DNA of 64,000 bases from Octopus vulgaris (lineage: Eukaryota), in NCBI GenBank assembly GCA_951406725.2, contig OX597823.1, positions 42,470,001-42,534,000 on the forward strand, in the 5' to 3' direction. This document shows, one piece after another, positions 9,901 through 37,849 of the stretch. The notes beneath the pieces were generated by a model that made no database searches, had not been told where the DNA came from, and saw only the letters and a list, made by a program, of their open reading frames with translations. A program made the position numbers and the translations under genes. Position 1 is the stretch's first letter. Each line of letters begins with the position of its first letter.

Positions 9901-9929
9901 AATATATATGTGTTTCTTAGTGATGTTAT

Positions 9930-12539
9930 TTCAAGAGTTCATGCAGCTTTATACTGAATACGTGGGCAACCAAGTCCGGTCTATCTGATGAAGTTTGGCC
10001 TGGAAGTAAATTTTCTCTAACTTCTTGCCAATTAGGATTGCAGGTTACTGTGAGGAAGATATCAGGAGGACCATATATGTGCACAATAGTCATGGCATCT
10101 TAATAGTGCTCATGCATATTCCTAGGAGAACATTGAAATGATGAAGGCAAGATAACTGTGTGTCCTATTCGAGCATTTGCAGCATTAACAGCATTCTGTA
10201 AATGATTGGCAAGACCATGGTATTCTACTGCTTTTAACTTGTGTTAATGATTCTTCCCAAAATCTATATTGTTACCTTCGACTTGCAGGTAAGAGTCTAA
10301 TGCCCATTACTGGAAGAGATTGCATCCATGAATAACTGGGTTGAATTCACCATCTCTAACTGCTGTAAGAGACATTATATGTTGGAACAATGTAACAGTT
10401 TGCTTCGAGTTTGCTCTATTTTTGTTACCAATCATATGTGGTTGCCAGCCTGGTTCTCCGTATGGAAAGAACAATACATATGTCATTGGGTCGAGGTTGG
10501 GGCTAAGAATGTTCAAACTGATCATATGAACTTCATTGTTTCTTGGGTAAACTTTGAAATCTCTGTTGAATGGTGGCTTGCCATCAGTATTGCTGAAGAC
10601 CATAGCTATTTCATTAGCTGATGGTAAATTGTATTTCCACCTATCAGCAATGCATTTCCTGTTGAAGACTAAATTTACGACAGACATAGGCCTCTGTTCC
10701 TGTTGAGGATGCTGTTTCTCGTGCAATTCTACTTCTCGTGATGTCCTGTAAGATGCAGCATAGACATTGTTCGCTCTGATAATCTCATCAAATCTGTGCA
10801 TCACCTCAGGTGTACATCTTTCATTTGCTGCATTCTGAGCCCGCACTGTGGTGGCTTGAACGCTGTCAACAACATACTGTTGTGCAAATTATTTGTGGTA
10901 GCCCTCAACAGGATGCATGTGCAAAGTCCTGTGATAAACGTGGCCATGACCTCTGAAGCAGAAAGGACCTCATCCTTCTGGGTCATCAATGTGAACACCC
11001 ATTGATGTGAAAGATTGAGCAGAGTTGTATGACCTTATGTTTTCCTTGAAGTTAACATAATGTGGATGTTGAAGGTCTGACAACAGAGATTGTAAGTATG
11101 GAGGAAAGTCTCTTTTAACTGAAGGCAGGACTTACCCTTTATGGCAGCAACTGTTAAAGCACCCGTCTGATGGTCACTCTGAAGCAAAATGTTTGGCTCT
11201 ACAAAACTGACACAATGTGTTCATATCACCACAATTACGAACTGGAACAGTCTCTTCATTATAAGTATGATTATTTACTAAATTTACAAGATTTCCAACT
11301 CTTCATGCAACTCTCATTGCATTCGCATTCAGCTGCCTTCGATTATTTCACTGTTCTTCCATTTCAGTATTAATTAATTCTTCCATTCTTCTCCTCATTC
11401 ACTCTCTGGAATCATTTACTTCTGCTTCAGTTTCATTTTCTGGTCTTAGTCTCTCTCTCTCTCTATCTTAAACCTTCTCTCCCCTCTGCTGCCTGCTTTT
11501 CCATTTCACCTTGGTGCCTTTGCAATGTTCTCTCTCTTTCAATTTCTCTCCTTTGGGCTGCTTGCTATTCAGTTTCATCTTGTCACCTCTGTGATGCTCT
11601 CATTCTTAGATCTTCTCTCTTCTCTACTACTTGCTCTTCTGCTTCATCTTGGCGCCTTTGTGATACACTTATTATTAGATCCCTCCTCTCAGCTGTTTGC
11701 TCTTCTGTTGCACCTTGGCACCTTTGTGAGGATTTCATTCTTAGATCTTCTCTTCTCTCTACTGCTTGCTGTTCTGTTTCATCCTGGTGCTTTTGTGCTG
11801 CTCTCTGTCTTTGGATATCTCTCCTTTGTGCAATGAAGTTCTCCTTTTTATTTTGATGTCTTCAAGTCTGTCATCTTGCATCATGTGCTCTTCTCTCTTG
11901 TCTCATTTCTTGTGATTGATTTAATAATACTTTTTTTAATCTTCTATTTTGTAATCTTCTTGCTTCCAGTTCTTTCTGAGTGAGACTGGCTATTCTTCGC
12001 CTTTGTCTCACTCTTGCTAATAGTCACCTTCTGCCTGTTTCATTGTCCATAGCAGAAGGAAAAGTATCAGTGAATGGATAACAAACACTACATACCATAA
12101 ATAAGTTATGAGAGTACGGATGACTAAAAATATCAGTGAACTGATAACAAACACGGTGTTTAGGGTTAGGGTTAGGGTTATGCCAAAATTGGATGGTATG
12201 TGTATTCTTTACCCCTGCCAACAAACACAATATACAGTAAATATATACACACATTGGAACTGAAATATTAGAGAAAATGATCTTTGTAAAATGTAAACAA
12301 AGCATTTCGCCTGTGAAATGAGAACCTTTTGCAAGCAATACTCGTTTTGCCACTTCTCCTCTCTCTCATTGCTATCACTTTCTCTCACTCCCTCTTAGTC
12401 ATGGCTATTACTCTCACTACTTCTCCTTCACTGAATTACTATTTATTTTCTCTCCTCTCCCTTCACTTATATTACTCTTTCCCTTACTCCCACCAACTGT
12501 GTAATTTTGGACAAATGTATATACATATGTATATATAGA
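9930..12539 (-). mobile_element. Decayed Helitron, N-terminal RepHel region, 3'-truncated
   Basis: Minus-strand motifs CCHKGKV, NIRSYN, YNLPSANEIAMVF, LDPMTYVLFFPYGEPGW, VILPSSFQCSPRNM, PDIFLTVTCNPNWQE, DRPDLVAHVF. Candidate 5' end A|TCTATATA at 12539. Helicase part absent. Confidence 0.9.
11562..11810 (-). repeat. In-frame 66-69 bp tandem repeat encoding 22-23 aa ETEEQ..ERRE units (STPR-like) in the Helitron N-terminus
   Basis: Units start 11562, 11631, 11697, 11766; minus translation DETEQQAVERREDLRMKSSQRCQGATEEQTAERR...DEAEEQVVEKREDLRMRASQR. Confidence 0.7.
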
Positions 12540-14832: not shown

Positions 14833-16722
14833 ACCAGTTTGCTGGTACTATAGGAAATTCAAGTGTACACAGCCCTGCTTTTACTCTTCTCAGGGAAACT
14901 AGGCAGAGAGGCGTTGGGTACGTCAGTTGTCTCCCCCATTGATTCACCTTACCGTGCATTTTTTTTTTATCCAAGGTGCTATTTCTTCAAAATCCTTTAT
15001 AGTGGGAGCCAGCGTGAGTATCTGGCTTCGAAGGTTTACTTCCACCAACCCTGGTCTTTCCGGCATATCTCTCTACGCGGTGAATCACTCAGTCATTAAA
15101 ACCTACGGACAAATCTCTCTTTCCCTGGATTTATCACTCCATAGGGATTTCAAGTGGATCTTCGTCATTGTGGACCTTTCCTATCCCATCCTTAGTGCTG
15201 ACTTCTTACATCACTATTCTTTCCTTATGGAAGTCAGAGGACGCCGGCTTATTGACGATACTATCTCACTCACCATTCTTCTGTCCCTGTTGTGAGCCCG
15301 CCTTTCTTTGTGGCTGCTTCGGGTAGCTCTTACCACCAGTTACTCGCTGCGTTTCCAGATTTGTCTGATTTGTCATTTCATCCGTCGAATCCAGCCCATT
15401 CCACAAGACATTTCATCACGACTAAGGGACATCCAGTTTTTTTCCCGTTTGTCTCCAGAGAAACTCCGGATTGCCTGGGCTGAATTCGAGCACATGCTCC
15501 AGCTGGGCCTTATTCGTCCCTCCACGATCCCGTGGGCAGCACCTTTATACATGGCCAGGAAGAATGAAGCTGATTTTCGTCCGGTTGGAGATTTTGGACG
15601 TCTTAACACTGTTACTGTTCAGGATCGCTATCCGCCATCAAATGTGCAGGATTTTTCGTCTGCCCTGCATGGTAGTAAGATTTTTTTCTAAAATTGACTT
15701 GGTACGCGTGTACCATCAAATCCCTGTCAACCTCGACGACATTCCAAAGACAGCTGTCACCACGCCTTTTGGGGCGTTTGAATTTTTGTCTATGCCGTTT
15801 GGACTTCTTAATGCGGTCAGCACGTTCCAAAGTTTCATTGATGAGGTCGTTCGTGGGTTAAAATTTGTCTTCGCATGCGTCGATGACCTTCGAATCGCTA
15901 ATGGCACTCAAGACCAGCACTTTCAACACTTGACCCAGCTGTTCAAGTACCTACGTTCCTATGATGTGAAGATCAAACCGGCTAAGCGTGTATTTGGTTC
16001 AACCAGTTTGGAATTTGGGGGGCATCTCATTGACGCCGACGGTTTTCGTCTGCTCCCTTCTAAAGTGGAAGCCACCAAACGCTTGTCTCCTCCTGTTTCC
16101 TTAAAACAGCTCAGAAATTTTATTGGTTTAATTAATTGTTATCGTCGTTTCCTTCCTAACTCTGCGGAAAAGTTGCTTCCCTTGATCCAGCTTTTGAATC
16201 TGACAAAACTGCTCAAGCATCCTTCCTCGCTCATCCTATTGCGGATACAAAATTGTCACTCACTGTCAACGTGCATCATCCGCTATTGCCGCAGTTTTAG
16301 AGCAATCTGTCAACAGCCGAAGCCAGCCGTTGGCTTTCTTTTCTCATCAGTTGAAAGCTGTCGAACTGAAATACAGTGTGTTTGGTAAAGAACTCTTAGC
16401 AATTTATCTAGCGGTGAAGTATTTCTCTCACCTCGAAGGTAGGGACTTCACGACTTTCACCGACCACAAACCGCTAACGTTCGCTCCCTTTGCCAAAACG
16501 GACCGGTACGCGTCCATAGAAACAAGGCACTTGAACTACATATCGCATTCGCCACATCGCTGGCACTGACAACATATCCGCCGACGCCTTATCTCACCTA
16601 CCTGCCGGTGCATTGTGGTCTCCTGCTTCGATTGATTTGGTTGCTAAGGCTACTGGCCAACCCTCCTTGGACTCTCTGTACGTCTCTTCACCACAGATTT
16701 CCTGCTGCAAGTTTGAACACCT
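14833..16722 (+). mobile_element. Decayed Ty3/Gypsy LTR retrotransposon internal region (CsRn1-like): gag end, protease, RT, RNase H
   Basis: Gag end CWYYRKFKCTQPC..QGN*; protease region IKTYG..W.F.I.D..PIL.ADFL; RT PWAAPL, DRYP, FSKIDL..YHQIP, MPFGL.NA..FQ, CVDDL; RNase [20 protein letters not shown]. Frameshifted; no LTR or integrase seen. Confidence 0.93.
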
Positions 16723-16827: not shown

Positions 16828-17872
16828 TGTGGGGATGCTGAAAGTTCCTGGCTTTGGGTAAAAGAAAACACAGGAGGATTAGTTGATTATAATTGTAATC
16901 AAAATATTCTGCTCTCAGATTTACACTTATTGCACCCCATAAATAATGCGGTTTTTTCAATAACATGAATTAAAAGTCGAAGGGGTACAGGATAAACTAC
17001 GTTCATCAACTTACTGTAAAAGCAGGTAGTAATTTTACCTTGCTCTTATTCTTAATACAAGTTTTGCAGAGTTCAGTTCGATTTTAACAGTTATTTTTTT
17101 CAAAGCTATAATGGAAGTGACAAACAAACATATTCGGCATATTTTGCTTTATGAGTTCGACAAAGGCAACAACGCAATGGAAAATGCGAGCAATATTAAT
17201 GCAGTATATGGGAATCGGGCAGTAAGCGTAAGCCAGTGTGAACAGTGGTTCCAGAAATTCCAAGCCACAAACCACAGCCAAGAAGACCAGCCTCGTCCTG
17301 GAAGATCTGTAAATGAGGATGTCCTGCAAACCCTGGTGGAACAAAATGCCATCGTAATTGTTGAGGAACTAGCAGAGAAGCTTGGATTTGCTATCGGAAA
17401 ATCAGCAATTTGGGTCAGTGGGTTCCTCACAAACTTTCCGAGTCTAATCGCGCGCAGAGAGTGAATGCGTGCTCTTTGCTGTCACGTCTCACGAATGAAT
17501 CTATTTGGGAGCGATTAGTGACTGGTGGTGAGAAATGGGTTCTCTATAAAAATGTCAATTGCCGAAAACAGTGGGCAGGAAAAGGAGAAACATCGGCACC
17601 TCAGGCTAAAGATGGACTTCACCCAACGTAAGGTGTTGTTATCTGTTTGGTGGGATATGAAAAGTTTAGTCCACTTTGAACTTTTAAACCCAAACCAAAC
17701 GATAACAAAGCAGATCTACTGCGAGCAGCTTAAGTCAGCGCTAGAAGAAACACAATCATCTTTGCTTTCAAGACGAAAAGCGTTCTTCCATCAGGATAAT
17801 GCTCAGCCACATACAGCGAAGATGACATTCCAAAGGCTGGAGCAGTGTGAATGGGTAACTATGCCCCACCCT
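16828..17872 (+). mobile_element. mariner transposon, decayed and 3'-truncated
   Basis: HIRHILLYEF..WFQKF..PRPGR; WVPHKL; LVTGGEKWVLY; LLSVWWD; HQDNAQPHTA. TA followed by TIR-like tgtggggatgctgaaagttcctggcttt. Confidence 0.92.
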
Positions 17873-18394
17873 TCATGTGTATCAAAGCAATAATAAAACA
17901 CGTATAATAAAACATGTATCAAGCGTCTTCAAGGTTGTCTCACAGTTCAACTAATTGCTACAAACATTGATGTTATGCGTGTGGTTTGTTGTATTGGGAA
18001 AGACAACCAGTTGAAAACCATTGTTATTATTTAACGTGTTTATTGACGTTGCTTGATTACACGGACGACATTAGCGTAGTGATACATTGTTTACTTTTCA
18101 CACAGTTCGTACTATTCACTACAAAATAGTGCCAAGAGTAGGGAGTAGTTTGGCATTCGCAAACACACAGATATGAATATGTAACAATTGGTCTAGCTTT
18201 TCTTTTGTGCATGTGTTTTCTTTTTTTCTAAATAAATCACTATCCCATATGTTGATGCATATATTGGCTAGGATTCCAGAAAACTCTATTGGTTGCTTAA
18301 AATAGACAGAATTTATCACCAAATGAAATTTGATTCAATAAATGAATGTCCATGCATATTTATTTTATACATATGTACGTATGCATGTATGTTC

Positions 18395-35984: not shown

Positions 35985-36480
35985 GACTTGGTCTGCTTAG
36001 AAGGTTGCTGTGTCCTAGCATATGTGTTGCTTATTTTAGTTTTCATATTTTCCAGTGGTGTTCTCTGTCTATTGTTTTAACTTCATCCCACAGGGGGAAG
36101 TGGTCTTCATTTTCCATACATGATCAGCTATACTCAATTTATCAATATCTCCTCATGTCACAGCTTTGTGGTGTTCCCCTACCCTTATTTTGAGGGGGTG
36201 GCATGTTTCACCTTTGCATAACCTATCACAGCTGCATGGGATGGAGTACATGCATTCTTTAGTCATTTTCTCTTCTATTGGTGGTTTTGCTCGACGGAGA
36301 TATTTGCGAAGTATTGTATTACTCTTGAATAATAGAAAATAAATAACAGACAGAGAACACAATTGAAAAATACGAAAAGTAAAAGAAGCAGTACATGTAC
36401 TAGGACATAATAATCTCCTAAGCAGACTGAGTGCAGATATGAGTAGCATATGGGAACTGGTATTAAGGAAGGATAGGAAA
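35985..36480 (-). mobile_element. Penelope-like element relic: GIY-YIG endonuclease fragment with inverted duplication of its 3' end
   Basis: Minus CMYSIPCSCDRLCKGETCHPLKIRVGEH..IADHVW (35985-36330); 36343-36435 is an inverted copy of 35985-36070 and continues on + as KEAVHVLGHNNLLSR..IWELVL. Confidence 0.85.
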
Positions 36481-37120: not shown

Positions 37121-37191
37121 TTTATATATGTATATATTTTATCTTTTACATGTTTCACTCAGTAAACTGCAGCCATGTTGGGGCACCACCT

Positions 37192-37730
37192 TATATATAA
37201 TTATATATAATTAATTTCACCCTTTATTGTTACTGATAACCATATTTTATCCCAGTAAATGACCACAGCATCTTGTCTTGGCTACACGTGGGTGGAAAGG
37301 GGCTGGTGACACAAACTTTCATTCACACTTTGAATTTCGTGGTACTGGTAATGGCTTTAGCTCGCTCTGACACTGAGTTGAGATGATGTCTTCTAGTATC
37401 TCAAAATTTAATATACAATTATTCATAATTGTAGTGTCCTACGCTGATGAGAAAAGAAGTTGGGTAAGGTAGAATTATCTAATTCTTATGCTTTCCTAAA
37501 ACTTGATTTCGAAACGTACGTCCGTAGGTGACTTAAAATTGTATGATAGATTGCCGTCATTTCATTCTCTCTTACCTGTCTGTGTTTGCCTTTCAAGTGC
37601 TGTGTTTTTACTGAGATCTCCCTTTTAGTAGAAAGAATAGCTATAACTCTTTGACTGCTATTTCTAAATTCGGTGTGTGGTGAGGCAATTCGTTGCTAAA
37701 CCCTTAATTGCTTAGTATTATATATATATA
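37192..37730 (+). mobile_element. ~540 bp non-coding TA-flanked element carrying an intact HHR
   Basis: Bounded by TA-rich tracts; 3' end gtgtggtgaggc..ttgctaaacccttaatt shared with the outer arm of the 34231-34908 fold-back. Confidence 0.7.
37438..37528 (+). ncRNA. Canonical type I hammerhead ribozyme; predicted cleavage after GUC at 37522
   Basis: cctacg-CTGATGA-gaaa..aagtt..agaatta/taattct..aactt..tttc-GAAA-cgtacg-TC-cgtagg. Perfect 6 bp stem I, G-C closed long stem II, palindromic stem III, all conserved core bases present. Confidence 0.9.
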
Positions 37731-37849
37731 TATATATATAATATATAATAAAGGACTATAGTGTTATTTCTTTCTTTTTAGCGATTATCAGCATAATTTA
37801 ACTTGTAATTATATGCATGTGCACATACACACACACACACACACACTAA

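Follow-up and report, generated by a model that had tools for sequence, protein, structure and literature searches.

The window analyzed here, a 64,000-nucleotide stretch of Octopus vulgaris DNA, carries on its forward strand a type I hammerhead ribozyme (37438..37528), as read from the sequence, its folds and its pair counts. The core elements stand in the order CUGANGA, GAAA, NUH with helix I open, the arrangement that marks a hammerhead as type I. Stem I (CCTACG/CGTAGG, 37438-37443/37523-37528) leads into CUGAUGA (37444-37450), a 60-nt stem II (37451-37510) with GAAA/TTTC closing and the pair G10.1-C11.1, the core GAAA (37511-37514) and a palindromic stem III, ACGTACGT (37514-37521), with cleavage predicted after C37522 (37522/37523). 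Beyond stem I, a 2x2 internal loop (GU/UG) is followed by the pairs AGU/ACU (37433..37533), and this extension is a candidate loop 1 for a tertiary contact. The original prediction of a type I hammerhead at this site is thus borne out by the full core, the three stems and, as described below, compensatory changes in sibling families. Its description as "intact canonical" holds for the core, which is intact, but not for the second adjective, since the 60-nt stem II lacks the terminal loop (loop 2) of a canonical type I ribozyme. The window otherwise is rich in microsatellites and holds many SINE-like repeats (the genome is 2.8 Gb in size), and broken remnants of a Gypsy-type RT/RNase H and of a Helitron (Pfam), together with what looks by eye like a mariner-like transposase remnant, lie at 14903-16570 (+), 9929-10888 (-) and 17033-17893 (-).

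In RNAfold predictions for 37420-37545, stem I, including the agt/act extension that had been proposed beyond the 2x2 internal loop, and stem II both form in the minimum-energy structure (z = -2.41, with 2 of 200 shuffles scoring as well), and a hammerhead descriptor finds one site in the window versus none in 20 shuffled windows. These two stems have an ensemble probability of 0.76-0.80, whether the ribozyme is folded alone, in the whole repeat copy or in the circular unit described below. Within stem II, a 2x2 internal loop follows the first 4 bp. Of the pairings first proposed for it, the gaaa/tttc closing stands, while agaatta/taattct can form only 6 pairs, as 7 would leave a loop of 2 nt; this segment is changed in the other subfamily (unit sites U530, U531 and U533). 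As a monomer, stem III amounts to 2 bp with a GUAC loop and is absent from the minimum-energy fold, and the full monomeric hammerhead with this 2-bp stem has an ensemble probability of ~0.002 in a calculation that leaves tertiary contacts and Mg2+ uncounted. Pairing of two palindromes is predicted at -9.8 kcal/mol and the monomer hairpin at +2.4, which makes plausible the dimeric cleavage for which the self-complementary stem III had been thought suited. Rfam gives no match at the gathering score, and its 10 matches at E<=10 include no hammerhead family; the long stem II may be the reason.

What had been overlooked is that this hammerhead is part of a mobile repeat, a 583-bp unit with hundreds of copies. 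It sits within a copy of 513 bp on the + strand (37208-37720), flanked by a TA-rich tract on the left (37191..37207) and a (TA)n tract on the right (37721..37747), which together form the target site; a target-site duplication is indistinguishable inside such a microsatellite. Tandem copies close into the 583-bp unit, which has a GC content of 36% and, taken as a circle, a longest stop-free frame of 69 aa. Numbered so that U1 (37523) is the first base past the cut, the window copy is 5'-truncated and circularly permuted, running from U269 to U198 (0.88 unit) with one ribozyme, and is 98.1% identical to the unit in locus L004. Exact matches in the genome number 242 for a 22-mer of the unit (control 0) and 365 for a 21-mer close to the 3' end, and the best 40 genomic copies are 98-100% identical. 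With one private substitution and a nearest relative 1.0% away, the window copy is young, as had been supposed. The retention of CpGs against a CpG-poor background, also part of the original prediction, is seen in observed/expected ratios of 1.52 for the 91-nt hammerhead, 0.64 for the whole copy and 0.46 for the window, and reflects both the youth of the copy and the constraint under which stems I and III stand. At 11 of 83 loci, a set enriched for them by choice, there are tandem repeats in which each unit has a complete hammerhead, and the window copy itself is not tandem; with its single ribozyme no unit release is possible, and judging from its sequence this copy would be a dead end.

The manner of insertion can be read from the ends of the copies. 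Our sample comprises 123 segments in 83 non-redundant loci, after dropping 7 duplicate fetches and all segments of <30 nt or <88% identity. All 83 loci were picked for holding a ribozyme, and 15 were taken because they are tandem or inverted; length counts, such as the 46 of 123 segments that exceed one unit, are biased upward by this selection. The 3' ends fall into two zones, which we call start sites S1 and S2: 73 of 123 lie at U176-205 (S1; 37698..37720, where the window copy ends, at U198) and 37 at U288-306 (S2; 37227..37245, read through in the window copy), with 13 elsewhere and none near the hammerhead cut. The two preferred ends are ~103 nt apart (U196 and U299). Nearly all segments (110/123) continue into TA-rich sequence, and the two zones hold only 10 of the 54 TA dinucleotides in the unit. 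The 5' ends, by contrast, are scattered from U24 to U557. Among 36 head-to-head loci, an S1 end is joined with an S2 end in 26 and with another S1 end in 1, while 9 have one end elsewhere; where both ends lie in S1 or S2, 26 of 27 loci thus combine the two sites (p = 2e-7 against 0.5). The 45 single-segment loci end at S1 in 38 cases and at S2 in 6, and loci chosen by a 3' motif instead (L221-L250) have the same ends and many short copies. An LTR-internal-LTR layout is found in none of the 83 loci.

Clustered 3' ends, scattered 5' ends, head-to-head arms and fusion to (TA)n are the insertion signature of Penelope-like elements (PLEs). Such elements are described as truncated at the 5' end and partly tandem, with a 5' copy in inverted orientation, a tail at one of the ends and a bias for TA (PMC8557442). 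When purified, a PLE protein makes nicks in both strands of AT-rich DNA and initiates at two internal positions, the spacing of which corresponds to the tail (PMC11167929). As these two sources portray Neptune/Nematis PLEs, the octopus family shares with them the truncation, the partial tandems, the inverted 5' copy, a pair of 3' ends of which one bears a tail, (TA)n targets and starts downstream of the hammerhead. It differs from them in that the unit is without reverse transcriptase or endonuclease, its ends being ~103 nt apart rather than separated by the PLE tail of 30-40, and in that its ribozyme is full-sized, not minimal, with the start 196 nt past the cut. Lacking an ORF with RT and GIY-YIG, the unit is not an autonomous PLE.

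Potential donors of the enzyme are present in the same genome. Intact PLE ORFs of 781-784 aa, with GIY-YIG (Pfam) and a CX4CX2C linker typical of Neptune/Nematis PLEs (PMC8557442), occur in many copies that are 99-100% identical. At least three young PLE families (L052-L080, L151-L158, L195-L220) have an upstream ORF and head-to-head copies, with two 3' ends ~35 nt apart, in (TA)n. The ends of these families also contain motifs of hammerhead shape that lie ~80-90 nt before the end and have a U3-A8 core; in one family GCAA stands in place of GAAA. A U3-A8 hammerhead variant has been described (PMC4209133). Against 68 PLE loci from a few families (30 of one family, 8 longer loci of two families and 30 with GIY-YIG), the unit shows no blastn similarity except for separate neighboring sibling insertions, and the partner may be among other PLE families beyond those sampled. 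By eye, one PLE tail matches the S2 region over 10 nt, a likeness that was discarded as too weak. On the minus strand of the window, at 36153-36300, lies a decayed stretch, YSIPCSC...KGET, with no Pfam match and no tblastn match to a Neptune-type protein. It resembles a PLE GIY-YIG motif, and is separate from the hammerhead finding.

Sibling families provide evidence that the ribozyme is maintained. Family B has a unit of 585 bp, ~70% identical to that of the family described so far (family A), with 44 exact 18-mer matches and the same two 3' ends (L161-L190, L082-L110). Its hammerhead has the palindrome ACGCGCGT, a GUA site and two extra bases after G10.1. Between the two families 2 of 12 pairs are changed on both sides, with 98.5% of 204 cells paired against 12-44% in slid controls, a covariation that rests on two families only and hence on two events. 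A third altered pair is seen in a 594-bp sibling (L266-L270, G000:C1:10.836-10.839 Mb), where U-A replaces the outer C-G of stem I; here a seamless array of >4 units runs from U9 to S1, with repeats 0-4 differences apart. Within family A the core positions are invariant or nearly so across the 83 loci, for U499-520 partly through the selection of loci. These compensatory pairs bear out the view that the motif is constrained. Further type I hammerheads with stem II of 39-59 nt and a 6-nt palindrome (CAATTG, CGATCG, CATATG or CTCGAG) occur at L122, L199, L119, L139, L167 and L194, the core kept and the stems different; by their sequences these are probably further retrozyme families.

The best-kept region between families A and B is U101-300 (70-84%), and within it lies a motif shared by the whole superfamily (37655..37681, + strand), contained in two predicted hairpins just before S1. 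This motif has 6,228 exact pattern matches in the genome (control 0) and folds into similar hairpins in both families, and in most of 30 loci a 3' end follows it by 46-76 or 161-184 nt. We regard it as a candidate binding element for the reverse transcriptase. A search of 30 superfamily loci with PLE protein found no linked ORF.

Taken together, the repeat is very probably a hammerhead-bearing element mobilized by PLEs. From the observed copy number, unit length, closed permutation, end sites, TA fusion, arms, haplotypes and intact PLEs we infer a fuller path, that of a new non-LTR retrozyme family moving via a ribozyme-made circle copied by a PLE reverse transcriptase, to which as a whole we assign a probability of roughly 0.6. 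Tandem copies would be transcribed, and two ribozymes would then pair by their palindromes and cut out one unit, which a host ligase would close into a circle. A Penelope-like reverse transcriptase/endonuclease would copy this circle into nicked (TA)n. A dimer-dependent ribozyme would leave monomer circles untouched while cleaving tandem transcripts, as PMC4209133 proposes for dimer-dependent hammerheads. The octopus ribozyme is like the dimer-working type I hammerheads with palindromic helix III presented there in its 6-bp helix I, its G10.1-C11.1 pair and its 2-bp helix III with palindromic loop; unlike them, as far as that account goes, it has a helix II of 4 bp, then the 2x2 internal loop and ~50 more nt instead of a terminal loop, and no Rfam model matches it.

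The main rival to this path concerns the nature of the template. U1-U20 has 274 exact matches, and in 260 of them the sequence extends back over the cut to include the preceding six bases. This excludes a cut linear monomer as the template and leaves a circle or an uncut multimer. At 36 diagnostic sites, mismatches number 2/462 between tandem repeats and 9/562 between inverted arms, as against 37% between loci, and locus-private variants are common to 10 of 36 tandem pairs and 6 of 39 inverted pairs. With one haplotype per insertion, both arms and every turn probably derive from a single RNA molecule or a single source. Uniformity within insertions is also what a young, homogeneous tandem source would produce, and in one locus (L034) two repeats share private variants absent from the third, a pattern showing that DNA-level duplication or conversion too can yield identical repeats. 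A recurrent G/A difference at U188 in L006 and L047 was considered as a sign of a shared source, which was ruled out as their haplotypes differ.

It is possible, if somewhat unlikely, that with the same element and the same enzyme the template is read-through RNA from tandem loci that stays linear and uncut, and that the ribozyme is dispensable for insertion or takes part in a different step. In vitro, the PLE enzyme starts internally on unprocessed RNA, and ribozyme mutants insert normally (PMC11167929). A young uniform tandem source predicts copies that cross the cut site, arrays of more than one unit and one haplotype per insertion, and by our own count ~10 of 77 loci among the matches listed for the 22-mer have two same-strand ribozymes. 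Linear copying, however, only shortens arrays, and the presence of 44 haplotypes among 55 loci implies many successive generations in which seamless tandems were formed. Sister insertions show no inherited repeat-to-repeat difference, in a comparison of little power, and the core is maintained with compensatory changes across families. We therefore prefer the circle, as seamless tandems need regenerating over the generations and the ribozyme is conserved.

A circular template and a borrowed enzyme have also been proposed for the metazoan non-LTR retrozymes (PMC7229834; 10.64898/2026.07.22.740005), with which the octopus family has much in common: an ORF-free tandem unit with one type I hammerhead, a GC content below 50%, PLEs in the genome and many monomer-length derivatives. 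Its units of 583-594 nt exceed the 170-400 nt given in PMC7229834 and lie within the 51-972 nt of 10.64898/2026.07.22.740005. Unlike those elements, as the two accounts portray them, it has a stem II of 50-62 nt and consists mostly of dispersed insertions of 0.2-2 units; relative to the same accounts, the mapping of insertion ends is new. Coral and mussel ribozymes cleaved as monomers (PMC7229834). Of 9 frog retrozyme dimers only 1 cleaved (Li, Clavereau and Pollet 2026, 10.64898/2026.07.22.740005), a result that counts against the proposed path. In the literature on hammerheads and retrozymes in octopus or cephalopods we found no description of the 583-bp family, although the supplement to PMC7229834 may list such motifs.

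The frog elements raise another reading, which we consider improbable, namely that the unit is only the pseudo-LTR of an unsampled autonomous PLE and the copies its truncated ends. In frogs, 24 of 57 retrozyme families show homology to PLE pseudo-LTRs (10.64898/2026.07.22.740005), and in the octopus PLE fragments lie directly 3' of the unit at two of the 83 loci of family A and two of the 30 of family B. These 4 of 113 loci are close to chance density by a rough estimate from 29,711 candidates, however, and the adjacent fragments, always 3' of the unit, end in their own unrelated termini. The unit is self-closing and leads into an ORF at none of the 83 loci, and no similarity to same-genome PLE pseudo-LTRs was found among the 68 PLE loci of a few families compared above, in contrast to those frog retrozymes that match pseudo-LTRs. 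In one case (L031, G000:C1:155.325-155.327 Mb) a copy of family A that ends at U196 is followed by a few TA units and then a 5'-truncated PLE in the same orientation; this tight junction may have arisen by template switching or by two separate insertions into a single TA tract.

The suggestion that the ribozyme might cut a host pre-mRNA at this locus, made in the original prediction, would require a domesticated copy and is very improbable. The hammerhead core is intact, and a lone hammerhead inside a sense intron could in principle cut, as is established for intronic hammerheads. Set against this, the insertion is recent, with its one private change and hundreds of fellow copies, the stem III of the monomer is weak, and no host exon was detected among 117 unmasked ORFs of at least 55 aa in the window, a search that would miss short exons; these ORFs matched only Gypsy-type RT/RNase H, Helitron and two sub-threshold matches. 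Spread as a satellite by DNA-level events, of which L034 shows homogenization, or as a SINE-like element moved by a LINE, is less credible still, being largely refuted by polarized 3' ends at two internal sites, head-to-head arms and TA fusion, and the copies have no poly(A) tail and the unit no A- or B-box (Pol III) by three simple patterns.

Returning to the retrozyme path, a bolder version of it may be entertained, if tentatively. The superfamily would comprise thousands of circular RNAs of 530-600 nt with long-stem-II hammerheads, unrelated to PLE termini, that parasitize PLE proteins via their own double hairpin; a protein dimer would prime both (TA)n strands from two sites ~100 nt apart on one circle, rolling round. 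If this is true, rolling-circle reverse transcription of a circle made by a ribozyme has left its record in the genome.

Considered simply as a ribozyme, the hammerhead is ordinary, and it likely represents a new family within a known kind of element, not a host gene switch. The movement of animal retrozymes by a PLE enzyme on a circular template is a hypothesis in the literature (PMC7229834; 10.64898/2026.07.22.740005), while a single in vitro PLE study points to unprocessed RNA (PMC11167929). The main value of the octopus family lies in its insertion ends, which make the retrozyme mobilization model testable: with clean footprints beside intact, recently active PLE proteins, natural sequences can be used to test directly whether the template is circular or linear and what part the ribozyme plays.
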